From NCBI GenBank assembly GCA_013791935.1, contig VMSV01000196.1:1745-65744 (forward strand): 64,000 nt of DNA, given 5' to 3'. Shown here piece by piece: positions 3,101 through 18,799 of the stretch. Within the stretch, counting starts at the first letter, position 1. Each line of letters opens with the position of its first letter. A program made the translations under genes and the position numbers. The notes beneath the pieces were generated by a model. The model did not search any database. It saw only the letters and a list, made by a program, of their open reading frames with translations, and was not told the DNA's origin. The DNA is from Desulfobacteraceae bacterium. GTDB taxonomy: Bacteria > Desulfobacterota > Desulfobacteria > Desulfobacterales > UBA5616.

Positions 3101-3138
3101 CACATGATACTCATTCAAACAACTTTTAGGACTTTGAT

Positions 3139-3792
3139 ATGGATTTATTCAATAAGATTACTATCTCCAATTTAATTTGGTATATCGTTCCTGGACTGGG
3201 AATGATTTTTTTTGTTTTATTTCCAATATTAGCCTTAAACCCTCACATTGTGAAATTATTTTATGAGCAAATTGGTGAAATTGGCTTATTAATTTTAGGA
3301 ACCATTCTTGGGTTTCTATTTGAAGGTTTGCGCTTATATAGGTTCAGGCCAGGTTATTCGACAATAAAAAAGGGATTCTTTGATGAACTTACGAAAACTA
3401 TTGGAACTGATTTGAATCCTTACTTTGTCCAATCGCATGTGGATGATTTTGCTAGAACAAAAAATTATGTGGGTCTAAGCTTGCATCATGCAATTTGGAT
3501 AATGTTAGGTCAATTTACCATATTGTTTTTATTCGAGGCCCTTTTTTGGGGAATAATGGCCATATATAATTATTATTATATCACTCAATACTATTCTCTA
3601 TTCGGTTTGAATATATCAAGAATAGAATACATAACATATTGCGGAGCATTCTCGGTCACTTTTTTATCAATTGGTTTGCGGTTAATGGTGACCTCAACTC
3701 AAGATCAGAAAAATACAAATAATATGTTTTTAAATTTTGCAAAACAGTATCGACATGACCTTCAAAAATTACTTAATATGGAGGTAGATTGA
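3139..3792 (+). CDS. Multi-pass membrane protein of unknown function
   Basis: 217 aa, about 4 hydrophobic segments, YIVPG motif near N-terminus. Confidence 0.8.
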   Translation: MDLFNKITISNLIWYIVPGLGMIFFVLFPILALNPHIVKLFYEQIGEIGLLILGTILGFLFEGLRLYRFRPGYSTIKKGFFDELTKTIGTDLNPYFVQSHVDDFARTKNYVGLSLHHAIWIMLGQFTILFLFEALFWGIMAIYNYYYITQYYSLFGLNISRIEYITYCGAFSVTFLSIGLRLMVTSTQDQKNTNNMFLNFAKQYRHDLQKLLNMEVD

Positions 3793-3851
3793 TAAAATGT
3801 TTGTAGGTTATGAATAAATTATATTAACCAGATTATCATAGACTAAATATT

Positions 3852-4748
3852 ATGCCGGAAATTAAACAACATTTTTTTTATTTTGAAGGTAAAACAGCCG
3901 ATTTTTTCCCATCAGTAGGATTAAAACTATCGGGAAATTGCAGATTCAAATGCCCCTTTTGTTGTGAGCCAAATCGAACTCAACAAGTATATCCCTTGAA
4001 TAATTTTATTTCCATAGCAAACATTCTTAAAAAATTGGGCACAAGACGATTATGTTTTACGGGGGGCGACCCGCTATCACATAAAGATATAGGGGCCTTG
4101 CTGCAGTACACCAAGTCTTTAGATTTTTTTAATTTGTTATTAACAACAGATGCCAAGGCTCTAAAAGAAAAGCAAAGAGAGGTGATACCATTTGTTAGTG
4201 CCGTGCGTTTTAGTGTTCATGCAATTGGTTCAGAACATGATAATATAGTTGGCTGTCGTGGCTCTTTTAGAGCTACAGAAAAAATGATTGATGTCTTGCA
4301 CGCAGAAAAGATTCCCTGCTACGTCACAACAGTTATAACTACAAAAAATATTATGTTCGTTAAAAATATTTTAGAATGGTGCGTTAAAAATGGAATTCAA
4401 TCATATTTTATATTCGGTCTCATGCGAAGCGGTTTAGGCAATGACTTTATAAGAAAGTATGGGCAAGTTTCAGAACAAGAAATTTCAAATATTATTTCTA
4501 TACTAAGAAATAAATATTCTCCTGAAGATATCGAAATTATATATTATGACTACTATAAACAGGCTGATTGTGTATTGGTATATGGTGATGGAAAAATTAT
4601 AATTGATCCATATCCAAAGCCGCCTACTTTTCAACTAGAAATTGGAAATATTTTCTCAGATACTCGAGAAGACATTTTGAAGTTTTTTTCACACGATCCA
4701 AAGAATTACGATGGTTATGTTAATCACTTTTTGAAGCACAAGAAATAA
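3852..4748 (+). CDS. Radical SAM enzyme (no full SPASM Cys set; viperin/MoaA-like architecture)
   Basis: CRFKCPFC (CxxxCxxC), FTGGDP, FSVH, C-terminal VLVYGDG...IGNIF. Confidence 0.9.
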   Translation: MPEIKQHFFYFEGKTADFFPSVGLKLSGNCRFKCPFCCEPNRTQQVYPLNNFISIANILKKLGTRRLCFTGGDPLSHKDIGALLQYTKSLDFFNLLLTTDAKALKEKQREVIPFVSAVRFSVHAIGSEHDNIVGCRGSFRATEKMIDVLHAEKIPCYVTTVITTKNIMFVKNILEWCVKNGIQSYFIFGLMRSGLGNDFIRKYGQVSEQEISNIISILRNKYSPEDIEIIYYDYYKQADCVLVYGDGKIIIDPYPKPPTFQLEIGNIFSDTREDILKFFSHDPKNYDGYVNHFLKHKK

Positions 4749-4786
4749 GAGCTTTTTTGTATACACCTATAATACCGAATTATTTA

Positions 4787-6646
4787 TTAAGGTTTCTTTG
4801 GGCTTAAAATTATTAAATATTCCATAACATTTTTTTGGGCGGTTCCGCCATGTGATTTATGAACAAATTTCGCAGAATATGAGATAACTTCACAGCCTGT
4901 TTTCTGATAGACGCGTTCAACCACCTCACATATATCGGCTTGACCATTATCAGAGTAGCTCCAAGCGCAATGCCAACCTCTATTCAATATCTTTATAATA
5001 ATATCTATTATTGTAGCTGTGGGCCTGCTGTTAGTTTTTGTGAAGAATTCAGATCGGAACCTATCGTTAGGTTTTGGAGTCAGGCCTATACCACTACAAG
5101 AAGGATATCTATATTCCACGAGAGTCTCTAAAACGTGATAAAAACGGCTATATTCTTCTCTTTTGTAAGGAGCATCAAGGTAAACTATAACTGGCACATT
5201 ATATATCAGCGTATCTAAAGTACATAATGCACTTTCCCAAGGGCCAGGAATCGTTTCAATTTGATTTTTTGTAGAATGGCTTATTTCTGATAGATTGAGT
5301 AACCTGGCTGTAAATTCATGAGTTATTGATTGTGACCTTTTATATAAAATATCAGATATATTGTTTTCGTTTAGAGCTAAATAATTTCTTATTGGAGGTT
5401 GAGCAAAATGCCCACCATAAGTTGTCCCCAAGAAGCTTGTAGTAGTAATCAAAGCTCCTAAAGCCCACATTCTCTCTTTCTTTTCTTTTATTATGTCAAT
5501 TGCATAACGCAAACTATCAATTTCCAAACATTGTCTGAGCCCAAAAAATACATTGGCAAAATATGTTGTAAATAGACAATAAGGGTAAATTGAATTGTCT
5601 TTCCTTCTAATTTGAACCTCTGAGGTTGGGGACCAATCTTTTGTATTACTTGGTTTGCACAAAACTGGGAACTCGCGGACAAATCTTTTATAATCTTCAA
5701 GCAAAGAATCGTCTATCTCTCTACAAAAAACATCCTCTTCGTTTTCAATTTCATCGGCTAATAATGATTGTAACTCGATAAAATGTTTTTTTGCAATTGG
5801 CAAAATTCGCGATAGAAGATCTTTTGCTCCATTCCGGCTAAAACCTCCGCCATGAACTACTGACAATATTCTGCAAAACTCTTGAGCATCGGACGAGTAC
5901 GTTTTCCATATTTTATTAGTGGCACCCGAGACAATTCCAGAACCACACATTAAATCGACTACTACTCCAGACTCTGGGAGCACGGAAGCGATAGCTTCAA
6001 CAATAAAACCACATAATGCTCTTTTTGATCCCATGTAGTAGGCTGACCGGGCAAATTTGTTGATTTCGGTATTATCGATTATTTTTGCGCGATTTAACTG
6101 CGCTTTCACATACTCAATCACTTTGGGGTTAAGAGTGGCGATTGAAGCTTCTGATAAGTATTTACATTTATTTTTATTTATAAGATTATTTTCAGTCGAT
6201 ATCAGTTTATTATGTGATGATATTAAATTTTTTGTTGCTGAATAAAATAATGGATCTGTTATAGAATCTTTATTCAATAAATCTATTATCGTATGAGGGT
6301 TTATTCGGATAGTATCTTGTTCAAACAATTTCTGAGATCTAGGTTTTTCATCATTTTTATCACCACACAAAATGATTGAGTCTATCAAGGCTCTTACATC
6401 TTTCTTTAATACGAATGAGTGCTTCTCAAACTGATAGGTGGGAAGAATACCTACCTCTAATATATATTTTAGCTTTTCAGGATCGATGTCCTTTCCTAAT
6501 TCATTTTGGAGGAAGTCTCTAATGCATTTCTCATTAATAAAAAGGTCCATTTTAGGAGAATTGGCTGATTTGTTCGGCAAATCAATATCGTCTTTATAAG
6601 TATGAACATGAAAAGAAATATTTGTTTTTGTCAATTTATCTTCCAT
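4787..6646 (-). CDS. DNA adenine methyltransferase-like protein (D12/FokI-type) with about 190 aa N-terminal extension and DAPY motif
   Basis: YYMGSK, DLMCGSG (SAM binding), YLDAPY...YSRFYHVLETL. Confidence 0.8.
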   Translation of the reverse strand: MEDKLTKTNISFHVHTYKDDIDLPNKSANSPKMDLFINEKCIRDFLQNELGKDIDPEKLKYILEVGILPTYQFEKHSFVLKKDVRALIDSIILCGDKNDEKPRSQKLFEQDTIRINPHTIIDLLNKDSITDPLFYSATKNLISSHNKLISTENNLINKNKCKYLSEASIATLNPKVIEYVKAQLNRAKIIDNTEINKFARSAYYMGSKRALCGFIVEAIASVLPESGVVVDLMCGSGIVSGATNKIWKTYSSDAQEFCRILSVVHGGGFSRNGAKDLLSRILPIAKKHFIELQSLLADEIENEEDVFCREIDDSLLEDYKRFVREFPVLCKPSNTKDWSPTSEVQIRRKDNSIYPYCLFTTYFANVFFGLRQCLEIDSLRYAIDIIKEKKERMWALGALITTTSFLGTTYGGHFAQPPIRNYLALNENNISDILYKRSQSITHEFTARLLNLSEISHSTKNQIETIPGPWESALCTLDTLIYNVPVIVYLDAPYKREEYSRFYHVLETLVEYRYPSCSGIGLTPKPNDRFRSEFFTKTNSRPTATIIDIIIKILNRGWHCAWSYSDNGQADICEVVERVYQKTGCEVISYSAKFVHKSHGGTAQKNVMEYLIILSPKKP

Positions 6647-6651
6647 CTATA

Positions 6652-7593
6652 TCACAACTTATTCAATTCTTCTTTATATCTTCGTGCGTGAATAACAGTT
6701 TTCAACGCCTCAATAGCGCCATCAAGTACACCCCTTCTAGCTACGTAATCACTACATTTTTTTGCTTCTTCTGAGGCCGTTTCAACAGAGACACCAATTC
6801 CTGACCATGATAGCATTTCAGCATCGTTGTCATTATCCCCAATTCCAAGAATTTGCTCTCGTGTAAGTCCAAGGATATTGGCAACAATTTTCAAAGCCTC
6901 ACCTTTATTGCAATTTATAGGTTTTACTTCAATATAAGTACTGCCATGCGTAAATGAGATATCAGCTATCCCCTTCAAGCTCTTACTTATATCAGCCATT
7001 ACCTGCGTATTGCCCAAGGTGTGAATTACAACTGCAGATGGGCTTATTGATTTATCAATTTCAGACCATTCCAGCCATTTAACAGGCATGAAATTATATT
7101 CCTTATAAGGTTTATCAACAGATGACCACCCGATAGCGTGCTCTTCAAAATCATCTTCTCCAAACCATTTACAGCAGTATGCGATAACTTTCACTCGAAA
7201 TTTTGAAGAAATTTGAACTACCCGAATCATCGACTCATTTGATATTTTTTCTTGATGAATAGGCTTATACTTTTTTAAGATTTGACAATCTTTACCATAT
7301 TTGTACTTTTTTTTAATTATGACACTCCCGTTGTATAATATTATCGGAGTTCCATTTTTAATCGGGAGCTTCGCAATCAAATGCTCTGCTCCTGACAGTG
7401 TGCGGCCTGTCGCTATGATTATCTTAATGTTAGAATTTTTAAATTTATTGGCGAAACTTAATATTTTTTCTGGAAGTTCAGATTCATTAGATTCTAGTAA
7501 CGTCCCATCAAGATCTACGGCAATAAGCCTAATCTTCGAGAAGGGTCTATACAATTCTAAATTATCTATTGAACTAGGTAATAAATTAGCCAT
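6652..7593 (-). CDS. Cof-type HAD-IIB phosphatase
   Basis: AVDLDGTLL, IATGR, YNG, NKGEAL, GDNDNDAEML. Confidence 0.92.
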   Translation of the reverse strand: MANLLPSSIDNLELYRPFSKIRLIAVDLDGTLLESNESELPEKILSFANKFKNSNIKIIIATGRTLSGAEHLIAKLPIKNGTPIILYNGSVIIKKKYKYGKDCQILKKYKPIHQEKISNESMIRVVQISSKFRVKVIAYCCKWFGEDDFEEHAIGWSSVDKPYKEYNFMPVKWLEWSEIDKSISPSAVVIHTLGNTQVMADISKSLKGIADISFTHGSTYIEVKPINCNKGEALKIVANILGLTREQILGIGDNDNDAEMLSWSGIGVSVETASEEAKKCSDYVARRGVLDGAIEALKTVIHARRYKEELNKL

Positions 7594-8584
7594 TTTTAAC
7601 TATATATAGATGGTGCCTTGTTTTAATTGGAGATATTTTGGTTCTATATCCCTTACAATCAATGATAAAATCATTAATTTTTCCAAATGGAGAAAGGATT
7701 TCTTCAATATTTTTTGAAGGAATGATACCATTATCAGCATAATGAAAAACCAACAATTTAAACTTTGCGTTATTTAGAACATCCAATAAAGCTTGCTTTG
7801 ATTCTATCTTGTTATTAAATTTTGATTTAGTGTTAATTTTAATTGGGATGCCTGATTGACCATGCACTACAGGAGTCCCTTCTAAGGCTATTGTCTCAGG
7901 CAAATGATAATAGTGACCATATGAACGTTGATTGTAGGGGGGATCAAGATACAGAATATCAAAATCGCGTCTTTTAACAAGTTCTTCTGCGGTTTCATTA
8001 AAACAATGGCCTTTTCCGTTTAAAGAAGCAGGCATTATAAATTGGAAACGGAATTGGTTCAAAGCCTTTCGGTGCCATTTTTTTAAAAATGCATAATAAG
8101 TGCCTGCTGTATTCGCGACTTTATCTAGACTGTTTATAAGAGAGGCGAGCATTACAGCTTTTTCTTCCCCATTAATCCAGCCTTTTGCCGACCAAAATGC
8201 AATTGCCCTTCTACATGATTGAATCTTTTTTGCGTTATAATTTGTAAAATACTGTCTATTTTCAGAATATTCCCTTACAAACCAACCATTCTTTGGAGGT
8301 AGCGAGTTCATAAAGGTTTCCAAATCTGTTAGGTTATTAAGGTTCAGTTTGTTAATAATTTTCTTAAAAGATAGTGGCTTTTCATATTTTAGTCGTGCTT
8401 TTTGGAATAGAAAAGGAAATTTCAAAATATCTCCACTCCAAACATCATAACCCATCGATTTAAAATGTGATGCAACTGAGCCTAAGCCCCCAAAAGGATC
8501 GCAAAAGGAACCTATTGGTATTTGCCTTGAAACCAATTCATATATATTATTTATTGTAGATATTTTAGAACCTATATATCTCAT
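7586..8584 (-). CDS. DNA adenine methyltransferase (D12 class, FokI/NlaIII-like)
   Basis: MRYIGSK, DPFGGLGSV, VANTAGTYYAFLK, YLDPPYNQRSYGHYYHL. Confidence 0.9.
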   Translation of the reverse strand: MRYIGSKISTINNIYELVSRQIPIGSFCDPFGGLGSVASHFKSMGYDVWSGDILKFPFLFQKARLKYEKPLSFKKIINKLNLNNLTDLETFMNSLPPKNGWFVREYSENRQYFTNYNAKKIQSCRRAIAFWSAKGWINGEEKAVMLASLINSLDKVANTAGTYYAFLKKWHRKALNQFRFQFIMPASLNGKGHCFNETAEELVKRRDFDILYLDPPYNQRSYGHYYHLPETIALEGTPVVHGQSGIPIKINTKSKFNNKIESKQALLDVLNNAKFKLLVFHYADNGIIPSKNIEEILSPFGKINDFIIDCKGYRTKISPIKTRHHLYIVKNG

Positions 8585-9341
8585 TTAATTATCAATATTA
8601 TTATTATATTTAATGTTCTAAACGATGAAACAATATGCATCACATACACAAAACAACGATATTTTGGAATATTAAATCAATACAAAATTATGCAGAACCT
8701 TTGCTAATAAGTAAATGGAATTTTAGGTTACGCAATGAAAGACATTCCCTATAGAATATGAGTACCTCAAATTTTTTCTTAAGCCAATCACAATTCATTC
8801 ATTCATATTTACATGATAATTATAGCAGGGGTTTTTTATCGGCAAATTAATAAAATGGAACAATTATTTTTTATGAAGGATTACACATTGATTTGGTGTT
8901 GATAACATTATTTATTATTAACATATTGATCAATTAATTAAAAGCCTCAGCTTACTCGAATAGTTATCATATGAATTAAGAATTTATTCCTATTCTTTTT
9001 CATAATAAATATTATTTGTTTATTATGAAATAAATTTAACCCCCCCCACCTGCTGGTAATTCACAGTCATTAAAAAGAGTATGGGGTTTTGTGAAGCCCA
9101 ATCATCAACCACTTTTCCAAATAATGAATGCATATTTGAAACATCAAGCATATCAAAATTCTCAGAACAAATTTCTTTTTCTCCCATTATTTTTTCACCT
9201 TCTGATTTTTGATATTTTCAGCGCAGCTAAGCCTGACTCCGTCTATTTAGCCTTCAGAATATTCAAGTGTGTACTGGTAGGCCCTTAAACCACGTTGTTT
9301 TTTACATCGGTAAAACCTTTAAAATAAAAACTTTGTTCAGG

Positions 9342-10169
9342 TTAGGCTTTGCCATTGGAAGGGGTTTTAAAAATTTCCTCAACAACCCCTTCAAAAGATG
9401 AAACCGTGTCCGCCAACCCTATTTGAACTGCCTCTCCACCGCTAAAAAGGCCAGCCATGGTGTCATTAACCATTTTTTGATCAAGTTTCCGGTTTCTGGC
9501 CACTGCCTCCACAAGAATCTGATAGGCGTAATCAACCTGTTTCTGAATAGCCTCCCTGCCCCGATCCGATAAGGGGGCATCCGATGACCTTTCATTTACT
9601 TTTTCACCGGCATATACAGTGGTATATTTTACTCCAAATTTTTCATTGTAGCTGGATAGATCCTCATGAACCGCAATAATTCCGATAGACCCAACTATCG
9701 CAGTCCTGGAAAGAAATATTTTATCCGTTGCCGAGGCAATCAGATACCCTGCTGAAAGGGCCTTTTCGTTTGCCATGGCATAGATAGGTTTAATTTCCCT
9801 GGAGTTGTATATTTCATCTGCAAAATCGAAAACACCGGCAATGTCTCCCCCTGGTGTGTCCAGGTCAAATAGGATGGCCTTGACATCCGGGTTTTTTATA
9901 GCCGAACGAAAATCTTTCCGAAGATCCATGTAAGAGGTGCGCCAACTCCATCCGGATCTCTTATAAACCATCCCACCGTTTACAGAAATCACGGCAAGGC
10001 CGTCAGAAACCTCCAGGCAGCTTGTAGAGTCTTCAAACATGGACACGGAGGTTTCGGTATTTTGATTGTTTAATGCGACAAGGATTTCTCTTGCAGCCTC
10101 GATAGAAACCGCCAAAGGTTTTTGGATCAGGTGAAAGGGAGAAAAATGGTTTTCATTCATTTTAAACAT
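9342..10169 (-). CDS. S49 family peptidase, lambda gpC-type prohead maturation protease domain
   Basis: LAVISVNG, ILFDLDTPGG, ALSAGYLIAS, VGSIGII, VARNR, GLAD motifs. Confidence 0.88.
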   Translation of the reverse strand: MFKMNENHFSPFHLIQKPLAVSIEAAREILVALNNQNTETSVSMFEDSTSCLEVSDGLAVISVNGGMVYKRSGWSWRTSYMDLRKDFRSAIKNPDVKAILFDLDTPGGDIAGVFDFADEIYNSREIKPIYAMANEKALSAGYLIASATDKIFLSRTAIVGSIGIIAVHEDLSSYNEKFGVKYTTVYAGEKVNERSSDAPLSDRGREAIQKQVDYAYQILVEAVARNRKLDQKMVNDTMAGLFSGGEAVQIGLADTVSSFEGVVEEIFKTPSNGKA

Positions 10170-10301
10170 CAGCGTTTCCTTTTATGGATTCTTTATGAAA
10201 TCCCGGTCCGGCAAGGTGAACATGGAAGGTTTGGGGAGACACCTTGCCGGTCCATGGCCCCCGGGATTGCCATTTAACATGGAGCTTTCTCCCCAAAGCA
10301 A

Positions 10302-11051
10302 TTACCCGGTCATCACACAGGGGTCAGTTCTGCATGAAGAACATTGGGCTTTACCCGTATCTTCGATTGCAAGGCAATTCGAGAACGTGTTCAGCCCGGC
10401 CTTTTCCAGAATCCTTTGGATCTCGGTTTCCGGGTCATAATTTTCAAGGGATTTTTCAAGACCGGCTTTTTCCTTTGACAGTCTGTTCAATTTCATTTTC
10501 ATCGAAGTCCCATCTGTAGTTGATTTTCTTTCCTTTTCAACCTGCCGTTTAAAATATTCGTAATCCTGGCCCAATAGCGTTGACCGGTTTATGTTCAACT
10601 CAGGGCCTGTTTTCATAAGCCCTGTGCTGGGTGTGTAAGAGTATCTTTCGCCTTCAATTTGTTCAAAATAAACCTGACATTTAGCCGCCATAGAGAGGAA
10701 TTCGTTTAGGCTTTCTTGCTTAATTCGTGACAGATTGGTGCATTCTTGTTTGATCTCATCAGCCCGCCTTTTAAAAGTAACAGGGATAGAATCGGCCAAT
10801 TTGCCTTTTAGCTTTTTCAAATAAAGAGAGCAGGCGTCAATTTTCGACTTGGTATCGGCAAACACCCTCTTTTCCTGTTCAAGCAGTTCTCCGACCTCCT
10901 GGTTCATAAAGGCTTTTAATTGCAAATCAGTGACACGCTCATTTGCAGCGTTGTATTGCGCTCTTAAATCATTTTGAAATTGAACGACCTCAACAAAATT
11001 TTGGGCCAATTCTTCCAAGCTTGCGTTTTCTTTCGACAGTTTTGAAAACAT
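10302..11051 (-). CDS. Hypothetical coiled-coil protein with C-terminal Cys cluster
   Basis: 249 aa helical/heptad-rich ORF with AAGGA RBS, co-oriented in satellite operon. Confidence 0.7.
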   Translation of the reverse strand: MFSKLSKENASLEELAQNFVEVVQFQNDLRAQYNAANERVTDLQLKAFMNQEVGELLEQEKRVFADTKSKIDACSLYLKKLKGKLADSIPVTFKRRADEIKQECTNLSRIKQESLNEFLSMAAKCQVYFEQIEGERYSYTPSTGLMKTGPELNINRSTLLGQDYEYFKRQVEKERKSTTDGTSMKMKLNRLSKEKAGLEKSLENYDPETEIQRILEKAGLNTFSNCLAIEDTGKAQCSSCRTDPCVMTG

Positions 11052-11090
11052 TGGGATATCCTTTCTTGGTTTAAAGAGAATCAGGTATTC

Positions 11091-11309
11091 TTACATAGTA
11101 CTTTGATGCGTTTTATCTTCCCGGAAGCCTTTGGCCCTGGCTTGTGCGTTTTCAATTAAATGATTGCCCTGGCCGCTTGCCGGAAAGCCTGATTCTGACT
11201 TTTCAATTAATGTATCATTTCTTTTTTTTGCATCAGCAATCAAGGGATTGCCGGTTGATGAAATGATTCCCCGATTTTCTGGCTTGTTTGATTGTATGGT
11301 GCTTAGCAT
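11091..11309 (-). CDS. Small protein with two GNxLIxxAxxR repeats (scaffold-tail-like)
   Basis: 72 aa; GNPLIADAKKR and GNHLIENAQAR; AAGGAAAGAG upstream; start overlaps previous ORF. Confidence 0.6.
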   Translation of the reverse strand: MLSTIQSNKPENRGIISSTGNPLIADAKKRNDTLIEKSESGFPASGQGNHLIENAQARAKGFREDKTHQSTM

Positions 11310-11632
11310 GGCTCTTTCCTTTCTTTGGGTTTGGTATGGTTTTTAAAATCGACCTTAATCACTTTGTTCCCTATGGGTCGCTTGGTAAAGGCTTCCACGT
11401 GTCTGTCTATTTCCTGGACCGTATGAAACATGGGTTTGGACTGCTCAAACAGCGTCATCATGGCTTGGACCCCAAACGGACTTTTAAAGGAGTACTTGTC
11501 ATTCAGATCCAGGCTCTTTTTAACGATGTCGGTAATGTCGTTGGCCAGGTGTTTTAATTTCTTAATTTCCTCTAAATTTTCGCGTCTCATCATAAGAATG
11601 TTTTTCGTCCGTTCCCCGCAAAACCAATCCAA
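11303..11632 (-). CDS. Hypothetical protein
   Basis: 109 aa ORF directly downstream of origin; ends with phage-typical NKVIKVDF; true start may be a downstream Met. Confidence 0.55.
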   Translation of the reverse strand: MDWFCGERTKNILMMRRENLEEIKKLKHLANDITDIVKKSLDLNDKYSFKSPFGVQAMMTLFEQSKPMFHTVQEIDRHVEAFTKRPIGNKVIKVDFKNHTKPKERKEPC

Positions 11633-11686
11633 GGAGAGGAATGGTCCTGTGGTCTTTTGGTTAAAGGTTCCGACCGTTTTTTAAAT

Positions 11687-11881
11687 GGTCACCGTTTAGG
11701 TGACAATCCGGTGACTATCCAGGTGAGGGTCGACCATCAGCAAACCCGTTTCGGTTCTATCTTTGGTGACTATGGTGACTATTTTTCTAGCAAATATTAA
11801 ATATTAAAAAATAAAATATTAATAATAATAAAGTTATGTAAAAAAGCGTGTAAAAGTCACCTAAGGTCACCAAAGGTCACC
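11687..11881. repeat. Iteron replication origin of the satellite
   Basis: GGTGAC at 11699, 11710, 11765, 11774 and inverted GTCACC at 11688, 11856, 11866, 11876 (10-bp phasing) around an almost pure A/T core (about 11781-11845), immediately 3' of the helicase gene. Confidence 0.85.
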
Positions 11882-11885
11882 GGAA

Positions 11886-13559
11886 TCAGATTTCAAGTTT
11901 AAGCCCAATTCCATAATATCGATAAACACCCGAGACCCTTCTTTTCTCAAAGCGCTTGGTCATCATGGACCCAAAGGCCTTCATTTTTGGCACCCGTTTT
12001 GAAATGTTCAGTTCAAACCATTCCTCGAAGGCCTCGTATAATTCTTTTGCCCCGGCGGTCGCATCCGGGTTGATGATGCAGCAGTCATCCAGAAAATCAG
12101 CCAGCATGTCAGAATCCCTTTTGAATTCTGCGGTTGCTTCCACAACTTTAAGAGGCGGGCAAAGGCCTTGCTTTTGATACAGATGGCACCCCCGGATCAG
12201 CCAAGCCAGTATTTCGGGTGCCTCATCCTTCATTTTCTCAAACAAATGCTTATCAGCCCGCCGCTCATTGTCTGCCTGGGGCTCACGATTGACAAAGGAC
12301 ACCTCAAAACGCACTCTTAAGCACCTCTCCCAAAAAGCGAAGTCGTCCGCCGGTGCATTCGGGATATGGTTTGTGGATAGGATAAGGGTGTGGGTCGGTT
12401 CAAATTTGGTGAACATCTTATCGTGGGGAAGGCGTGCGATCACGGTATCGTCACTTGACAACCACTTGACCCTGGCCGGTGAAATCTTTTGATGAGGGTC
12501 CGTTTCCGACGCAATGGCAAGGTTAACCCGGTAAAGCATCATCAGATCCGGTGAAGGCCCGGAGGAATTTTTAAACCGTCCCTGGTCGAGAAGCATCTCG
12601 CTTGGAATGACGGTTGCCATTGGACCCAGGATGAACAGCAATATTTTGATCAGAAGGCTTTTGCCGTTTCTGCCCTGGCCTTCAAAAATGATAAATATGT
12701 GATCCTTGTTTTTTCGAAGAAGGGTCATGCCAAGCAGCCGCTGGAGGAACAAAACCATTTCCGGATCACCGTTCATGGTTTCATACAGAAACTTGAGGAA
12801 TCTCTTTGGGGTACCATACCAATCAGCCAATGGATGAGGGATGCATTGGGATTTCAGATCTTCCGGGAGACCTGGCCGGACAAGGCTTGAAACAAGGTTG
12901 TAAATATTTTTCTCGCAATGGGAAAAGCAAATTTCATTGGGCTCCGTGTCGAACTCTTCATTTAAAACGCCAAGGCCATTATAAGTGGTATGGGCGAAAA
13001 ACACACACTCGTTCCGGCCTTTGTTTGTCCGGAGCCATCTCGCCAGTTTCAGGCACCCCTTCATGGTTTTTTTCAGCCTGAATATTTTCGGGCTTTCCGG
13101 ATCAAGTTCTTTGATCTCCTTGTCAATGTCAAAGGCCTCTTCCAAGAGCCATTCCACGATGCCCTCAATAGCTGCCAGATACTGCCCTTTTTGATCAATT
13201 TGCCAGTTCGGCCCTTTGTCGTAGAACTCCCATTGACTGGTGGTTTTGTTGTGCAAAAAACATTTTCTATATCTGAACTTATAGAGTTCTGAGACGCCAA
13301 CAGCCCCGGTATCGTAGTACCCGGTATCCCGGATTAAGGCCTTTGCGCTTTCCCTTGATGGCTGGATACTTGTGGACCCAGATCCACCGTCATCCAGATC
13401 CGGTCCGGATTCTTCGGAAACCCTTAGCTTGACCACATCGGCGATCTGCCTATCGGTTTGCTGTAGAATAAAAGAATCAAGGCATGATACCGGGAAGCCC
13501 GGATCTTCGTCCGCCTCACCGTGTCCTGAGACCCTATATTCAATATTATCATCAGGCAT
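11886..13559 (-). CDS. P4/D5-family primase-associated SF3 helicase (D5_N + helicase + C-terminal wHTH)
   Basis: Walker A GQGRNGKS, Walker B IASE, STNHIP, AFWERC, LYEAFEEW, YYGIGLK. Confidence 0.9.
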   Translation of the reverse strand: MPDDNIEYRVSGHGEADEDPGFPVSCLDSFILQQTDRQIADVVKLRVSEESGPDLDDGGSGSTSIQPSRESAKALIRDTGYYDTGAVGVSELYKFRYRKCFLHNKTTSQWEFYDKGPNWQIDQKGQYLAAIEGIVEWLLEEAFDIDKEIKELDPESPKIFRLKKTMKGCLKLARWLRTNKGRNECVFFAHTTYNGLGVLNEEFDTEPNEICFSHCEKNIYNLVSSLVRPGLPEDLKSQCIPHPLADWYGTPKRFLKFLYETMNGDPEMVLFLQRLLGMTLLRKNKDHIFIIFEGQGRNGKSLLIKILLFILGPMATVIPSEMLLDQGRFKNSSGPSPDLMMLYRVNLAIASETDPHQKISPARVKWLSSDDTVIARLPHDKMFTKFEPTHTLILSTNHIPNAPADDFAFWERCLRVRFEVSFVNREPQADNERRADKHLFEKMKDEAPEILAWLIRGCHLYQKQGLCPPLKVVEATAEFKRDSDMLADFLDDCCIINPDATAGAKELYEAFEEWFELNISKRVPKMKAFGSMMTKRFEKRRVSGVYRYYGIGLKLEI

Positions 13560-13574
13560 ATGCAGGAGAGCCTT

Positions 13575-13964
13575 TTACCGGTTTACGAGGAGTTGTTCGG
13601 CTATCTTTTCCCGCCAGCGTCTCACGGTGGATGCATTGGCTTTGATCGCTTTGGCGATTTCTACATCCTTCCACCCGAGTTTAAAAAGAAGGCAGCACAA
13701 AAAAATGGCGGAAAAAGGGACCTTGTTATGTGAAAAAATAGTGTCGGTGATGGCAAAAAACTTTTCCTTGCAGACCATGCAGAAGCATTGCTGGTTTGAC
13801 CAGAACCTTTCCGGCAGCTGGCCATATTCAGCGCCACAATGTGGGCAGGCCGGAGACTTATGGATCTTCCTGATAAAATAATCCTCGCACCGCTCTTCAT
13901 TGAAAAGATTTGGCGAAATGTCATTGAATACATCATTTATGAAGTCTATTCCCATGAACATCAA
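13575..13964 (-). CDS. Zn-ribbon + HTH small protein
   Basis: CPHCG...CMVC and C-terminal HTH EIAKAIKANASTVRRW. Confidence 0.75.
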   Translation of the reverse strand: MMFMGIDFINDVFNDISPNLFNEERCEDYFIRKIHKSPACPHCGAEYGQLPERFWSNQQCFCMVCKEKFFAITDTIFSHNKVPFSAIFLCCLLFKLGWKDVEIAKAIKANASTVRRWREKIAEQLLVNR

Positions 13965-14032
13965 ATTCCTTTCATTGATTGTGATTTAACTCCCAGTTCA
14001 TTTTCCATTCCATTTCTAAATTTCAAATGTAA

Positions 14033-14085
14033 CCGAAACCCGCGCCTCTGTGACCCGTATAGAAAAAAAGTTCCGGGAAGGACCC
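14033..14085 (-). other. Lambda-type cohesive-end packaging site (cosQ + cosN-like)
   Basis: Minus strand GGGTCCT-TCCCGGAACTTTTTTTCTATACG-GGTCACAGAGG-CGCGGGTTTCGG versus lambda GGGTCCT-TTCCGGTGATCCGACAGGTTACG-GGGCGGCGACCT-CGCGGGTTTTCG. Confidence 0.75.
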
Positions 14086-14367
14086 GCAGGCCTCGGGCAT
14101 TGCCTGAGCCCGTTTGACCTTTGGCCTGTTTGGTTTTGGTGGGTGGTCCGGAGGGAGATAAAACCGGCTTTTTTTGACCAGAAAATCGATAAATAAGAAA
14201 TAAATATAGTCTGTAAAAAGTATAAAATAAAAAGATGGATAGAGATAATTTTAAATGAGTAGAGAGAGTGTTTCATTTTTCGATTCCGCTTCGGACCAAT
14301 ATATTCCGCAAATTGCCTAAATTTATCCGGATAGAAAGAAGGGTGGAATTATATTATTTGTGATTAT

Positions 14368-14613
14368 TCAACATTTGGTTCTTGAATTTAACCATCCAAC
14401 AAGATGGGTTCTCAAGACCGCTGGGGATCGCCCCACATGAAAAATCTTAGAGGCGATCGCTTCATCACGGGTTTTGCCAGTAACCATATTTCGAAAGCCA
14501 CCACGTGAATAAGGAAACCCAGGCAGTCTATCTTTATCAGCTTCTTTAAGTAAAATAGGATTAGGCCAACCATTTTCCTCTGCGATACCTTCCCAAAGTT
14601 TATTGTCTTCCAT
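14368..14613 (-). CDS. AlpA/excisionase-like small wHTH protein
   Basis: 81 aa; YSRGGFRN...IFHVGRSPAVLRTHLVGWL pattern; position typical of alpA in satellites. Confidence 0.65.
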   Translation of the reverse strand: MEDNKLWEGIAEENGWPNPILLKEADKDRLPGFPYSRGGFRNMVTGKTRDEAIASKIFHVGRSPAVLRTHLVGWLNSRTKC

Positions 14614-14688
14614 TTTTAATACCCTTTCTTAAAAAAAAATTATATTTAACTGTACGATCTGACGCAAAAATACATTGTGCATCAATAA

Positions 14689-14791
14689 TTGCAATACGTG
14701 CAAATGGCTTATTTTTGCAAACCCAAGAGTTGCAAATTAATAGGTTTGCAATCCAAAGGATTGCAAATTTGGATAGTTGGTTCTTATGCAG
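14689..14791. promoter_or_regulatory. Array of TTGCAA palindromes, putative operator of alpA-like operon
   Basis: TTGCAA at 14689, 14715, 14730, 14746, 14761 plus variants at 14698 and 14786; 15-16 bp periodicity. Confidence 0.6.
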
Positions 14792-14852
14792 AAAAATAAG
14801 GGGCGGATTAAATCAATTCACTTTAGGTGACAAAAGAATGATCATTTGAAGA

Positions 14853-15761
14853 CTAAAGCAAACCTTCTTCTTGAAGGTCTCTTCTTATAGTTGCGGTGGT
14901 TACTATCATTTCACTAACCATTTTTTTTAAGCTATTTATTTCTTCTGTTGTAGCGGCACTCTGAAGCAATTTCATTAATGCATCAATTTCTTTCTTTTTA
15001 ATCCCAGGTTTCAACAAAGCCGACTCAACTATCCTATATTTCAAAACTGCACCAATAAGTCGATCTCTAACCATTGCAGATTTATTTAAACGCACATCCT
15101 CGAACTGTTTCTCATGAAATGCGCTTGCCACTAATGTCTTTCTTTCACGTTTACGAGTCGAAATTATTTTTATGCCTTTTTTACTTTTGTCGGAATTCGG
15201 ACCTTTTATCGAGCCCGAAAGTATGGTTTCGCTTAAGGCTTTATGAATAATTCTTTCTGTTGGTAAACTCAGTAGGAATAACGAGGTAAAGTTTATTTTG
15301 TCCAAATTACTTTCAAGCCATACATAGAAAAATATTAAGACTTCCAAATGAACAAAAAACAGATCTTCGTCATCAGGTGGGAAGTAATATGGGCTAAGCA
15401 TATCTTCAAAAAAATCTGTTATCAAATAATAATCAGGTTCGTGAAAAAAATCATACTTAAAATTGCTTACTTTAATAAGGCTTTGGTCTTTTTCGGGAAA
15501 TCTAGGTCTTATGCCAAAATCCTTTTTCCCCCTAAGCTCTTTATATAACTTATCAAGTGTCTCGTGATAATATTTATTTTCACTTTTAGACGCAACAAGA
15601 GCCTTACGGGATATATGGTACCGAAAGGCCAACTTTCTGAGGAAAAAAGATTGTTGAGAAATTACTTGAAAAATTAATATGTTATCTATTCGATTCTCCG
15701 ACGCTATCAATTGACTGATAAAGTATTTGTCTAATTTATCATTTTCTGTTTTCTCATTCAT
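14853..15761 (-). CDS. Hypothetical protein with C-terminal HTH (putative element regulator)
   Basis: 302 aa; C-terminal VTTATIRRDL resembles a DeoR-type recognition helix; sits between int and alpA-like gene. Confidence 0.65.
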   Translation of the reverse strand: MNEKTENDKLDKYFISQLIASENRIDNILIFQVISQQSFFLRKLAFRYHISRKALVASKSENKYYHETLDKLYKELRGKKDFGIRPRFPEKDQSLIKVSNFKYDFFHEPDYYLITDFFEDMLSPYYFPPDDEDLFFVHLEVLIFFYVWLESNLDKINFTSLFLLSLPTERIIHKALSETILSGSIKGPNSDKSKKGIKIISTRKRERKTLVASAFHEKQFEDVRLNKSAMVRDRLIGAVLKYRIVESALLKPGIKKKEIDALMKLLQSAATTEEINSLKKMVSEMIVTTATIRRDLQEEGLL

Positions 15762-15849
15762 GCCTTCTGCAATTCCTTCTTAGATGACCCGGCAATGCTT
15801 GCAAGGGTAGTAAACTCTTCGATTCATCAACCTATGCCGGGTCAGATAA

Positions 15850-17097
15850 TCATGCCTTTTCAGTCCTTTTCAAATCATAAAATTCCGAAATCTTTTGTTG
15901 ACTTTTTTCCAGCCGTTTAACAGCAGCTTTAAAGGTGTCCGGCTGCAAATGCGCATAACGCCGGACCATCGCAAAAGAACTATGACCCATCAATCCTTGC
16001 AATATATATAGATCGGTGCCAGCCGCCGCATGCCAACTTGCAAACGAATGCCGGCAACTGTAAAAAACCAGTTTATGCCTTCTGTCAGTGATTCCGTCAT
16101 TAAAACCTTTTTGATCAACCACCTCCTGGAACAGACGCGGTGTTTCAAGATATGGCCTTTTCCCGGATCTCATGAAAATCAATGTATCTGGCTTGGCGTC
16201 TTGGGACTTTGAATGACGATCGACCAGAACTTGCTTTAAATCATCGGTCATGAATGCATGTCTGTTTTTGGAGTTCTTGGTATCCAGAATTTGAATTTGT
16301 TCGTTTCCAAAATCTATTACTCCCCAGGTCAATTTTAAAATTTCACTGGATCTCAGACCGCACCGGAAAGCCAACAAAACCATTGTATATGTGTCCAGGT
16401 CTTTGGTTTTTAATTCAGATAGGAGATTGTCGGCTTCATCCCGAGAAAAAAAGCTTAACCGACTGTTATCCGCTTCCGGAGGCTTAACCTGGGAAACAGG
16501 ATTCTTCCCATAAAAAATGTCATTGCGAATCGCATAATTAAAAACCTGCCGTGCAACAGCAAGAGCATATTTAATGGTACGGGGAGTAAGATGCAAGTCA
16601 CCCATGTTTTTTTTGATCATTTCAAAATGAAAAGGTGCTATTTTCCCGATCGGAAGGTTTCCGATCACGGGCGCTAAATATCTCTCAAAGAGTGGGACCT
16701 CGCGTTTCCATCCTTTTCGGGTTCTTTTGGTGGCTTTGTTAATTTCTAAATATTTACCCCACACATCGGAAAATTTAATGTTTTTTCGCTCTATTTCTTC
16801 GTCAGCCTTTTTTTGGGCCTTCTCATCTTTATTTTGCTTAAGTCTTTTAGCCTTTAAAGTAGTCGGTCCTGTACCATGGGTTTTGTTCTCTTTGAGCTCG
16901 TGAACTTTGCTTATGGCTTTTTCAAGGGTCATACCATCAAAGAGCCAGCCAAATCCTTCCTCAAGCCTCGTCTCACCAACAGTGTGGCGATATTGGTAAA
17001 ATACATCGCGCTGGGTTTTTATCCCCTTTTTTCGGGTTCTGGTAGGGTGGTAGCGGAACCTTAATCCCTTAACTGATGTTTGGTGCCATGTGAACAT
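15850..17097 (-). CDS. Tyrosine recombinase/integrase
   Basis: Catalytic GLRSSE, K (TKNSK), YSCRHSFAS, LMGHS, RRYAH; N-terminal arm-binding domain. Confidence 0.95.
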   Translation of the reverse strand: MFTWHQTSVKGLRFRYHPTRTRKKGIKTQRDVFYQYRHTVGETRLEEGFGWLFDGMTLEKAISKVHELKENKTHGTGPTTLKAKRLKQNKDEKAQKKADEEIERKNIKFSDVWGKYLEINKATKRTRKGWKREVPLFERYLAPVIGNLPIGKIAPFHFEMIKKNMGDLHLTPRTIKYALAVARQVFNYAIRNDIFYGKNPVSQVKPPEADNSRLSFFSRDEADNLLSELKTKDLDTYTMVLLAFRCGLRSSEILKLTWGVIDFGNEQIQILDTKNSKNRHAFMTDDLKQVLVDRHSKSQDAKPDTLIFMRSGKRPYLETPRLFQEVVDQKGFNDGITDRRHKLVFYSCRHSFASWHAAAGTDLYILQGLMGHSSFAMVRRYAHLQPDTFKAAVKRLEKSQQKISEFYDLKRTEKA

Positions 17098-17392: not shown

Positions 17393-17507
17393 TTAATTAT
17401 GATTTTGGATGATTTTAGATTTTGAAGGATGAAGCACACATTAGATGTATATAAATGATATGTCAACAAAAAATGACAGAATGTTGAAATACGTGATGGT
17501 CAATTTT

Positions 17508-17567
17508 GAGGACTCAAAATCCTCCGGGGGCAACCCCATGGGAGTTCGATTCTCCCCCTCGGCACCA
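17508..17567 (+). tRNA. 3' fragment of tRNA-Leu(CAA), att site (not a full tRNA)
   Basis: GAGGA-CTCAAAA-TCCTC anticodon arm, long variable arm, GTTCGATTC T-loop, CCA end; no D-arm or 5' acceptor strand upstream. Confidence 0.88.
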
Positions 17568-17577
17568 TTATAAAATC

Positions 17578-17612
17578 AAGGGGTTAGCCTTTTTGGGTTA
17601 ACCCCTTTTTTG
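17578..17612 (+). terminator. Terminator-like hairpin after tRNA fragment
   Basis: AAGGGGTTAGCC-TTTT-GGGTTAACCCC followed by T-run. Confidence 0.6.
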
Positions 17613-17825
17613 TGCCGAAATCGCGGATTGTGCCCGAAATTGTGTCCATGAGTGATTTTAGGTAGGCCTCCTGGCGCTGTTCGGCAAGTATTAGATCCGC
17701 ATCATTGACGATATTGTATCGGTCAAATACGGCACGCGTTTTATGGCCTGAAATCATCATTGCCACTCTTTCGGGGATGCCGGACCGGATCATGTTCCGG
17801 ACCGCGGTTCTGCGGAAATCATGCT
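17584..17825 (-). pseudogene. C-terminal remnant of a second tyrosine integrase
   Basis: [36 protein letters not shown]; rest of gene missing. Confidence 0.88.
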
Positions 17826-18015
17826 CTCAATATTGTAATAAGAAAGCGGTCAAATCATCGAGGTCTCCAGCCTCGCCCAAAAGGCGGGAGGGAAATTTCA
17901 TGTTTCGTCTAAAATAAGAAAAAAAGTTGCAATGTGGCTTATTATGATTTAATTTAGACTCAAAGGTGACAATTTGGCACCAAAAAAACCGCTATTAGAT
18001 TGGAAAGGCAAAAAT

Positions 18016-18300
18016 ATGTTGGCCAATAATAAAAAAATAGAACGCATCACTGCAAGGGTGTCTGAGGATATCAGAAACAGACTTGCTGAAGCGGCAGCCT
18101 TTTCCGGGGCCACATTGAATCAGTTTTTGGTTCAGGCAGGCGTGGAGAAGGCAGAGTCCATTATCGAAAAAGAACGTATCGTCAACCTGTCATACAAGGA
18201 TGCCGAAGTCTTTTTCAGTGCCATTGAAAGTCCGCCAAGGCCAAATTCAAAATTAAAGAAAGCCGCAAAAAAATTCAAGGCTTCCGGACTGAATGAATAA
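18016..18300 (+). CDS. DUF1778 RHH antitoxin (TacA/AtaR-like)
   Basis: ERITARV...AAA.SG.TLNQF...FFSAIESPPRPN.KLKKA; overlaps GNAT gene. Confidence 0.9.
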   Translation: MLANNKKIERITARVSEDIRNRLAEAAAFSGATLNQFLVQAGVEKAESIIEKERIVNLSYKDAEVFFSAIESPPRPNSKLKKAAKKFKASGLNE

Positions 18301-18799
18301 TTATAAAATAGAGCCTTTAAGCAAACATCATAATCGGAAAGATTTTGACTGCGGTGAAGAAGCGTTAAATCAATATCTACTGGCGGTGGCTTCTCAACAC
18401 GCGAAAAAGAGCGTTTCAAGAACCTTTGTTCTAATTGAAGTTGATCGTCCTGAAAAGATTTTAGGATTTGTTACATTAACAGCTTGTGAAATCAGGGCAG
18501 AATTCCTGCCTGATCCATATCCCAAAAAATTCCCTTCGAAAGTGTCAGGGGCTAAAATCGGAAGATTAGCCATTGATAAAGCCCACCAACAAAAAGGTTT
18601 CGGAAGTCAACTTATGGTTTTTGCCATGAGCCAGGCCCTTATTGTCCATGGAAGCATTGGACTGGTTGGTATGATGGTTGATGCCAAAAACGATGAAGCA
18701 AAAGCGTATTACAGGCATTACGGATTTATACCACTTCCGGATAATTCATTGACGTTGTTCCTTCCAATCAAAACCATCCAGGAAGCGGTTGAAGATTAA
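18293..18799 (+). CDS. GNAT acetyltransferase toxin (TacT/AtaT-like)
   Basis: FDCGEEALNQYL, IGRLAID, QKGFG, VDAKN, YYRHYGF. Confidence 0.92.
   Translation: MNNYKIEPLSKHHNRKDFDCGEEALNQYLLAVASQHAKKSVSRTFVLIEVDRPEKILGFVTLTACEIRAEFLPDPYPKKFPSKVSGAKIGRLAIDKAHQQKGFGSQLMVFAMSQALIVHGSIGLVGMMVDAKNDEAKAYYRHYGFIPLPDNSLTLFLPIKTIQEAVED

Follow-up and report, generated by a model that had tools for sequence, protein, structure and literature searches.

The closest described counterparts of the locus analysed here are the cos site of phage lambda (gpNu1/gpA) and the cos sites of phage satellites that depend on a helper. The locus lies in a 64,000-nt stretch of a Desulfobacteraceae genome (GenBank assembly GCA_013791935.1, contig VMSV01000196.1, positions 1,745 to 65,744 of the forward strand), which as a whole is called the window below, and consists of what is very probably a lambda-like cosQ-cosN site inside a small integrase-bearing island that has no terminase gene. 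Among satellites, phage P4 carries a cos copied from its helper and has neither terminase nor capsid genes; the cos of P2 and P4 is of a 19-nt type, and P4 features psu, sid and delta. The Escherichia coli cos-type phage-inducible chromosomal islands (PICIs; EcCICFT073 and relatives) have, according to passages of PMC9026076 and PMC6092414, a cosQ-cosN that is almost the same as that of their helpers, with rpp next to it where terS would stand. For lambda itself, passages of PMC4669245 describe conserved CG pairs that flank the cos nick sites and define a narrow group of phages with lambda-like cohesive ends (lambda, 21, phi80, N15 and Gifsy-1), and a passage of PMC9026076 places R3 at bp 50-65. 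In the passages of these three papers (PMC4669245, PMC9026076, PMC6092414) symmetry covers 10 of 16 positions of cosN, the 7-bp cosQ is conserved and required for ending packaging, and the distance from cosN to cosB is critical. Of 124 papers that contain the word cosQ (journals outside subscription), the phage papers among the 40 ranked highest deal, by title and opening of the abstract, with lambda-like enteric phages, PICIs or packaging in general, and none with a non-enteric cosQ.

All cos coordinates are window positions, with the motif read on the minus strand from 14085 down to 14036. The site and the blocks that follow it are:

14079..14085, minus strand: cosQ-like heptamer GGGTCCT, by direct reading; the same heptamer stands in all 120 lambda-type stretches listed
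14056..14078, minus strand: spacer TCCCGGAACTTTTTTTCTATACG, 23 nt, ending in TACG, of the same length as in lambda
14056/14055: predicted top-strand nick, placed by alignment to the contig starts of relatives
14045..14055, minus strand: predicted 11-nt 5' cohesive end GGTCACAGAGG
14045/14044: predicted bottom-strand nick, placed by alignment
14036..14044, minus strand: right flank CGCGGGTTT, whose conserved CG adjoins the second predicted nick
14014..14035, minus strand: A/T-rich segment CGGTTACATTTGAAATTTAGAA, in the place of the lambda segment between cosN and cosB, with a presumed function like it
13990..14013, minus strand: TGGAA/TGGGA direct repeats ATGGAATGGAAAATGAACTGGGAG, bp 43-66 from the predicted left end, a candidate cosB

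The sequence-only reading had described an exact lambda cosQ, a 23-nt spacer ending in TACG, a centre of 11 nt against 12 nt in lambda and a lambda-like right flank, and every one of these blocks was confirmed. The comparison with lambda was made against IMG/VR sequences that match the same gapped pattern, of which there are at least 120 stretches. Among the matches listed, 119 of 120 are 51 nt long and consist of GGGTCCT, 23 nt to TACG, GGGCGGCGACCT or near variants, and CGCGGGTTTTCGCTATTTATGAAAATTTT; the remaining one is a 48-nt high-GC variant. The window shares with lambda the 7-bp cosQ, the length and the TACG end of the spacer, a CG at both predicted nicks and the right flank CGCGGGTTT. 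It also shares an A/T-rich segment (lambda-type sites have TATTTATGAAAATTTT at this distance), repeats at about bp 45-65 and a partial twofold symmetry of cosN, which covers 8 of 14 non-central positions in the window and 10 of 16 in the lambda-type site. Around the nicks the window reads TACG/GGTCACAGAGG/CGCG, so that CG dinucleotides stand beside both predicted cuts. It differs from lambda in its predicted overhang, which is 11 nt long and reads GGTCACAGAGG where lambda has GGGCGGCGACCT, and in its repeats, which are of a TGGAA type and not lambda R sites; with an 11-nt end of another sequence, the window does not belong to the narrow lambda-like cohesive-end group. The repeats are a candidate binding site of a small terminase or specificity factor. 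The pattern GGGTCCT-N15-25-TACGG-N6-14-CGCGGGTTT matches the window once and none of 100 dinucleotide-preserving shuffles, a count that is weak by itself because the pattern was written after the site had been seen.

The element is widespread among relatives of the island's helicase (557 aa, encoded downstream of the site at 11886..13559). These relatives were taken from species-representative genomes and comprise 72 Desulfobacterota loci, in 55 of which GGGTCCT is present no more than 2 kb upstream of the helicase gene and on the same strand; for nine of the 17 loci without it, the DNA available upstream is shorter than 500 nt. In 47 loci the heptamer falls between 60 nt inside and 160 nt upstream of the extrapolated start of the helicase gene, against a background of only 117 occurrences on both strands of 653,519 nt. 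The aligned element spans about 110 nt and reads cGGGTCCTtcc.gg, about 18 variable nt, aCGGgt, about 10 nt, gC.Cg, about 12 nt and tttaa.ttt..aaa, followed by repeats that in the clade alignment are of the GGaAaaatGgAA type. The order and the spacing of its four blocks equal those of a lambda-type cos. A looser family pattern (GGGTCCTTCYNR, 8-22 nt, AYACGG) has at least 120 matches in IMG/VR. Among the matches listed, 102 have a motif length of 27-32 nt, and, counted after the nick from the G of ACG/G, position 12 is C in 71 of 98, position 13 is G in 56 of 98 and position 14 is C in 74 of 98. The CG dinucleotide stands at positions 12-13 in 44 of these 98 matches, at 13-14 in 11 and at 11-12 in 4, a placement that fits an overhang of 11 nt, sometimes of 12 nt, flanked by CG. 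The direct repeats about 45-75 nt past the predicted nick are specific to lineages and stand at the same distance in each (L130-L201 and L299-L418), with, for example, three copies of CCGGTT, two of GGTAACA, two of TGTCCCATG, two of GCCTAAAC, or GGTTGAC, and they make up a catalogue of candidate small-terminase binding sites.

Narrower searches returned little. A strict lambda-like pattern was found in none of 5 other genomes of the family and none of 400 other genomes of the phylum, and this pattern is too strict for the zero to say much. The exact 21-nt core of the window cosN has no match in IMG/VR, and blastn-short of the cos block against all fetched loci gave none at E <= 1e-3. When a 181-nt region was searched as DNA against its own genome only the site itself appeared, and a relaxed cos pattern had one further match there, on contig C93, which is within the control rate.

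The position of the element upstream of a P4-family gene also recalls the CI RNA region of P4, and one could read the conserved block as a structured leader or immunity RNA of the helicase gene, the more so as short palindromes in the spacer between cosQ and cosN were suspected by eye in many members. These palindromes were not borne out by shuffles: the best perfect spacer stem has a mean of 3.04 against 2.82 in shuffled sequences, and stems of at least 5 bp occur in 2.1% against 2.6% (47 of 56 sequences parsed). Together with the result that Rfam gives no match with an E-value below 4 in 13500-14700, this makes an RNA element highly improbable.

Another line of evidence is linkage to large terminases of the gpA family. 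By tblastn, gpA lies no more than 6 kb downstream in 23 of the 72 loci, and it was found in 4 of 5 host genomes of the loci, where it always follows the helicase gene on the same strand at a distance of a few kb. Relatives of NaphS2, Desulfosarcina or Maridesulfovibrio carry gpA-type prophages of the clade. A separate DnaG-type primase gene follows that of the helicase in 55 of the 72 loci (tblastn, 6-kb flank); the window has none. In the locus L214 the motif is followed by helicase, DnaG, ParB-methyltransferase, a terS-like gene, terL (gpA), a gpW-like adaptor, portal, S49 protease, decoration and major capsid genes, and this is the order of the lambda head genes. The relatives of the window's element thus share the head-gene order with lambda and differ from it in that the clade has replication genes between cos and terS-terL, while the window is devoid of any terminase. 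Five IMG/VR records, chosen for their differing repeat types, were checked for gpA, and in all five the gene lies downstream of the motif on the same strand, at 0.8-0.9 kb in four and at 4.6 kb in one. A distance of 0.8-0.9 kb between cos and gpA is the lambda arrangement, with space for terS. The sequence-only reading had proposed a search for the motif upstream of gpA genes in phages, and motifs of its family do lie there. Its remark that conservation outside Enterobacteria is notable has to be tempered: the cos family is widespread in phages with gpA terminases (the at least 120 IMG/VR matches), and cos conservation tracks the terminase family and is no peculiarity of this island. Among cultured phages the closest gpA relatives are at most 26% identical (158 records), and because of this low identity no cultured record with known termini could be used.

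These data also bear on the idea that the conserved element serves solely as the replication origin or promoter of the helicase gene, with the TGGAA repeats as iterons bound by the helicase. Direct repeats beside a P4-family primase/helicase gene are how an origin would look, going by that of P4, and in the clade the element does stand directly upstream of the helicase gene. Against this, the layout of GGGTCCT, ACGG and CGC is found 0.8-0.9 kb upstream of gpA in phages that have no adjoining helicase gene, and in the related island of genome G801 (described below) the cos follows the protease gene and the gene of a protein like the 249-aa protein of the window, not a helicase gene. Nor can an origin explain contig ends and an adapter-like junction at single-nucleotide positions (see the following paragraph). 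As a sole function the origin is largely refuted, and we consider it very unlikely; the TGGAA repeats could serve a dual role in packaging and as an origin.

A further line of evidence comes from the physical ends of DNA molecules in relatives. Eighty IMG/VR loci have relatives of the helicase, and in 38 of them the helicase match starts less than 800 nt from the contig end. Eleven of these 38 contigs begin in one and the same alignment column, exactly at the G that follows ACG:

Contigs starting at ACG/G: L215, L216, L228, L231, L243, L251, L253, L254, L255, L265 and L279, of 4-33 kb and from different samples

L229 fits the same start, with 11 nt and then CGCG, while L230 begins one base earlier and L248 lies 5 nt inside. 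On the other side, among the loci listed for the looser pattern, 7 of 120 have less than 300 nt downstream of the motif, and 5 of these 7 end 11-12 nt after ACG; L358, L402, L381 and L418 end 10 or 11 nt after ACGG. In L412 the 10 nt after ACGG are followed by the adapter-like string AGATCGGAAGAGCACACGTCTGAA (AGATCGGAAGAGC...), where the otherwise identical L401 continues in phage sequence. This string, which we take to be an Illumina adapter, appears to have been left untrimmed in a public viral contig and to mark a physical DNA end. Left ends at ACG/G and right ends 11-12 nt past it form the pattern of filled-in 5' cohesive ends, which indicates that the ends of the related phages carry a 5' overhang of 11-12 nt. 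Aligned to these contig ends, the nicks in the window are predicted at 14056/14055 and 14045/14044, where the sequence-only reading had expected an overhang (14045-14056). The far ends of five long IMG/VR contigs, which are fragments of 40-73% completeness, were also inspected, and none ends at a cos. As a separate matter, seven other IMG/VR contigs (L224, L242, L247, L249, L252, L280 and L289) open with the helicase start codon itself, immediately past cos, as though provirus boundaries had been set at gene starts and the cos lost by the trimming.

A chance resemblance to lambda cos, to which short motifs and a pattern defined after the site had been seen might lead, is refuted, because the motif is conserved in 55 of 72 related loci, is linked to gpA and coincides with contig ends, and we give it practically no weight. 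The identity of the site as a cos is well supported, as it rests on four independent lines, namely the sequence, the conservation, the gpA linkage and the physical ends in relatives, and the same conservation, linkage and contig ends at the predicted nick positions uphold the lambda-like cosQ-cosN reading as first proposed. Judged from these comparisons, we regard window positions 14085-13990 as very probably a homologous cos site. The cutting of the window's own copy, the functions of the single blocks and the identity of the cutting enzyme are what we infer from the relatives and from lambda.

The site lies in an island at about 9342-17097, in which all genes are on the minus strand and the span from the integrase to the protease gene measures about 7.8 kb. 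Its genes and the adjoining tRNA gene are, in the direction of transcription of the island:

17483-17567, plus strand: tRNA-Leu (tRNA call)
15850..17097, minus strand: tyrosine integrase, 415 aa (Phage_integrase 7.9e-27; phrog_1 1.1e-52), at the island end beside tRNA-Leu
14853..15761, minus strand: 302-aa open reading frame (ORF), with no family match below curated cut-offs and no homologue in the 72 loci
14368..14613, minus strand: 81-aa ORF, alpA-like by position only, without a Pfam or PHROG match
13575..13964, minus strand: 129-aa DNA-binding protein with zinc ribbon and helix-turn-helix (HTH), the first gene downstream of cos
11886..13559, minus strand: D5_N / P4-family primase-type helicase, 557 aa (D5_N 1.7e-6; phrog_1156 4e-67), a replication gene
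11091..11309, minus strand: 72-aa ORF with two copies of a tail motif, NPLIADAKKR and NHLIENAQAR (regex scan), the C-terminal motif of gpC-like proteases
10302..11051, minus strand: 249-aa coiled-coil protein, without a significant Pfam or PHROG family
9342..10169, minus strand: S49 (lambda gpC-like) head-maturation protease, domain only, 275 aa (Peptidase_S49 1.4e-30; phrog_53 3e-77)

A 109-aa ORF is also among the minus-strand genes between helicase and protease. The sequence-only reading had placed the site between alpA-like and replication genes; the position is right, and the alpA label rests on position, the 81-aa protein being without Pfam or PHROG match. A homologue of it (61% identical) stands between integrase and primase in an island of genome G460. 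The same reading saw no terminase gene, and this was confirmed more widely. Neither terL nor portal nor capsid genes were found in the window by Pfam, PHROGs or tblastn, the window being without gpA; when the head proteins of L214 were compared with the window by tblastn, nothing beyond the helicase and the protease domain was matched. The proteins of 302, 81, 109, 72 and 249 aa and the S49 protease have no homologue in the 72 loci.

Alignment shows the helicase to be full length; it does not have an N-terminal primase domain, and it has 813 homologues, the best of them 46% identical and named P4-family primases of Desulfobacterales (Desulfosarcina, Desulfobacula, NaphS2 and others), names that mark the host as a Desulfobacterota relative. 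The 129-aa protein belongs to a family in which Zn_ribbon_IS1595 matches 22 of 57 members and HTH_23 matches 25 of 57; it has 296 relatives at E <= 0.001, and its AlphaFold2 model (AF2; pLDDT 89.9) confidently predicts a zinc ribbon plus HTH fold. A homologue is present in 3 of the 72 loci, and the order cos, 129-aa gene, helicase is repeated in genome G003 (45% identity) and in L169. Its gene stands where lambda has terS and E. coli PICIs have rpp. A role as TerS or Rpp homologue was considered and dropped: Terminase_5 is below threshold in the window protein (0.031) and is seen in 7 of the 57 family members, a Foldseek comparison with PDB structures returned generic HTH rows and nothing at E <= 0.001, and a word-index search found only the protein itself. 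Because it resembles no solved fold, there is no evidence for it as a TerS or Rpp analogue.

The S49 protease is best read as an orphan domain, because it is short and is not flanked by head genes. Its close homologues are mostly 399-480 aa long, the four closest 415-422 aa apart from one of 348 aa, and in viral contigs its relatives stand between portal and decoration/capsid genes, neither of which neighbours it in the window. The tail motif is found at the extreme C-terminus of four close full-length homologues of the window protease and in the proteases of the G801 phage and island; it is absent from the truncated window protease, and the 72-aa ORF that carries it lies 0.9 kb upstream of the protease gene. 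The 249-aa protein was searched in 399 other genomes of the class, with one hit (G801, E 2.4e-22), and with a two-sequence profile in 399 other genomes of the order, with two (G003, 8.5e-16, and G460, 3.8e-8). Each of these three homologues sits in an island without terminase. The protein has neither IMG/VR relatives nor a PADLOC match, and it does not resemble the C-terminal part of the protease of the G801 phage.

The most informative of these islands is that on contig C142 of G801, with an integrase, RhuM/Fic, a DnaD-like initiator, an SF2 helicase, an S49 protease (339 aa), the 249-like protein and a cos motif, and with no terminase, portal or capsid match through 38 kb. G801 has five gpA genes on other contigs, and its contig C87 bears a phage with cos, terS, terL, portal, protease (433 aa) and capsid. 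From ACGG through CCGGTTCCGGTTCCGGTT (a triple CCGGTT repeat), over about 80 nt, island and phage differ at 2 positions only, while the flanks are unrelated:

L431 (G801, contig C142) 11904-12010 and L456 (G801, contig C87) 10965-10860: shared block from cosN to the repeats

The cohesive ends of this pair are GGTAGGCAAGG and GGTCGGCAAGG. The proteases of island and phage are 30% identical and share the C-terminal PNALV(E/A)DAKKRA at 11 of 12 residues. A shared cos block of this kind is what one expects of a satellite and its helper. In G003, a genome of the host's own family, the related island contains Xis, Neck1, S49, cos, a 129-like protein (45% identical), helicase, a 249-like protein, tape measure, ligase and integrase, and its cos has TTTCGGTTACATTT and TGGAAT repeats in common with that of the window. 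This island (L451, G003 contig C20, 6550-15823) is the closest relative of that in the window and combines an odd partial virion set (tape measure, Neck1/tail-completion) with a DNA ligase; no terminase, portal or capsid gene was found in it. The island of G460 has an integrase, the 81-aa homologue, a primase-polymerase and a 249-like protein, and no GGGTCCT. Neither G003 (75% complete) nor G460 contains gpA.

Taken together, the explanation that we consider best, and hold to be likely, is a genuine cos of the lambda/gpA type in an island that lives as a helper-dependent satellite. A satellite is favoured because the gene set recurs with different replication modules and because the G801 island copies the cos of a neighbouring phage. 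That the island of the window is itself still a working helper-dependent satellite is a narrower claim, towards which we lean with reserve. A requirement for a helper terminase fits the data, in that the window and its genome bin have no terminase and the G801 island copies the cos of a co-resident phage. The alternative to be weighed is a fossil cos in a decayed prophage, that is, the remnant of a phage of 30-47 kb from this clade that is no longer excised, replicated or packaged. Several observations weigh against the satellite and for such decay. The relatives are complete phages, as the IMG/VR contigs of 23-48 kb and the head module of L214 show, and the short S49 gene (275 aa) has neither the C-terminal third of most close homologues nor flanking portal and capsid genes. 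A comparison of the tRNA-Leu/integrase side with the far side gave no direct repeat (att) of 13 nt or longer, a low-GC methyltransferase region adjoins the island, and the genome bin (270 contigs, 98.16% complete) contains neither gpA terminase (PF05876) nor lambda-type portal (PF05136) and so no helper. Eight DNA runs, and no RNA run, are listed for the window; its read data, which are Logan contigs from four runs, bridge the site (record 1 of run X1 covers 7000-15432), and because assembled contigs bridge it, molecule ends are not visible in them. Word depth in X1 is flat, at 9.2 across the island against 9-14 in the flanks, and uneven in the other runs, and no excision joint is present in contigs of the four runs. 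The structural genes of G003, tape measure and Neck1 in unusual order, blur the line between satellite and remnant. Further points count against the main reading as a whole: no near-identical cos was met in the fetched phages, the best being L167 with 48 of 62 positions in a pairwise alignment; a metagenome scan for cosQ with the same cohesive end gave four matches, which are coding-like, without ACG or CGCG or homologous genes, and were set aside as chance; and the TGGAA repeats may instead be origin iterons for the adjoining helicase. What speaks against decay is that all ORFs of the island are intact reading frames, with a helicase of full length, that tblastn finds no remnants of terL, portal or capsid in the window, and that the same unusual gene set stands with differing replication modules in G801 and G003, in G801 paired with a matching phage cos. 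Because the terminase-less set recurs in these two genomes, independent decay to the same set is unlikely, and a fossil appears to us a doubtful, though serious, alternative.

If the island is a helper-dependent satellite, it would excise and replicate, the terminase of a helper would cut its concatemers, and the DNA would be packed into helper heads. The enzyme would be a gpA-family large terminase, which a DNA-binding partner bound to the TGGAA repeats some 45-65 bp downstream would bring into place; its top-strand nick would fall behind TACG (14056/14055) and its bottom-strand nick 11 nt further on (14045/14044), leaving 11-nt 5' ends GGTCACAGAGG. GGGTCCT, 23 nt upstream, would act as cosQ and end packaging at the next cos of the concatemer. 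The zinc ribbon/HTH protein of 129 aa encoded downstream of cos could be a packaging-specificity factor.

The window has what characterises a cos-type satellite, an element of about 8-15 kb: an integrase, its own D5 helicase, a helper-type cos and no terminase or capsid genes. With the cos-type PICIs of E. coli it shares the small integrase island, a gene in the alpA position, a primase/helicase-type gene, a helper-like cosQ-cosN, the missing terminase and a small gene of DNA-binding type directly after cos, as rpp is in the passages of PMC9026076 and PMC6092414. It differs from them in that no solved fold was found to resemble its 129-aa protein, with no direct comparison made to Rpp itself; the G801 island, moreover, also copies the cosB-like repeats of its helper, where E. 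coli PICIs have a different cosB. The gpC-like protease and the coiled-coil protein of these islands are not among the PICI features described in the passages of the two papers (PMC9026076, PMC6092414). From the capsid-forming PICIs (cfPICIs), whose integrase, primase, terS, terL, portal, protease and capsid are matched by relatives such as L214, the island differs by having only a protease fragment and neither capsid nor portal nor terminase; the IMG/VR relatives reach 40-48 kb, which is full-phage size. With P4-like satellites (P4/P2) the window has in common an integrase, a P4-family primase/helicase gene, a cos that would be copied from a helper, and the absence of terminase and capsid genes. 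Its cos is of the lambda/gpA type and not of the 19-nt type of P2 and P4, its helicase does not have the N-terminal primase domain, and general Pfam and PHROG scans of the window proteins gave no homologues of psu, sid or delta.

The cos site itself belongs to a known kind, and the type of island around it is the more novel lead. We tentatively raise the possibility, which we would rate below even chances, of an undescribed satellite family in Desulfobacterota (G000, G003 and G801, with G460 as a looser relative) that mimics its helper cos and carries a rearranged protease/scaffold module. The mimicry would be twofold. Satellites of phages with gpA terminases and lambda heads would carry a copy of the helper cos, comprising cosQ, cosN and the repeat block, and in addition a protease domain, the recurring coiled-coil protein and the tail motif of the helper protease, N-x-L-[IV]-x-D-A-K-K-R, which in the window would have been split off into the 72-aa ORF with its two copies. 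The protease/coiled-coil module might enter or remodel helper proheads, for instance to suit them to a genome of about 8-17 kb or to spoil the heads of the helper. The module of protease, coiled-coil protein and tail motif suggests a route of head hijacking that, to our knowledge, is unlike those known for satellites.

More generally, the cos architecture of lambda is no enteric peculiarity: heptamer, spacer, CG-flanked nicks and spaced repeats travel with gpA terminases to distant phyla. This provides a simple sequence rule for predicting the genome ends and overhangs of uncultured cos phages, and contig ends in relatives confirmed the rule here. The terminase-less island of this uncultured groundwater relative within the Desulfobacterota is likely a helper-dependent mobile element; if this is true, cos-type satellites extend to the Desulfobacterota, for which the literature searched describes none.

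Two further observations concern the surroundings of the island. Beyond its protease end, the window has a low GC content at about 3000-9000 (30-36% against about 50%), where two genes of D12-class type II methyltransferases (7586-8584 and the C-terminal part of 4787-6646), a HAD hydrolase (6652-7593) and a weak pVip-like match (3852-4748) are found; this stretch may be a defence or restriction-modification islet that abuts the island. At the other end, a 69-aa C-terminal fragment of another tyrosine integrase (17584-17793) follows right after the 3' end of tRNA-Leu, and a TacA-like antitoxin (PF08681, 2.7e-22) and a GNAT acetyltransferase are encoded at 17974-18799. The latter two genes look like a TacAT-type toxin-antitoxin pair, and together with the integrase fragment they may be what is left of an older island at this tRNA.

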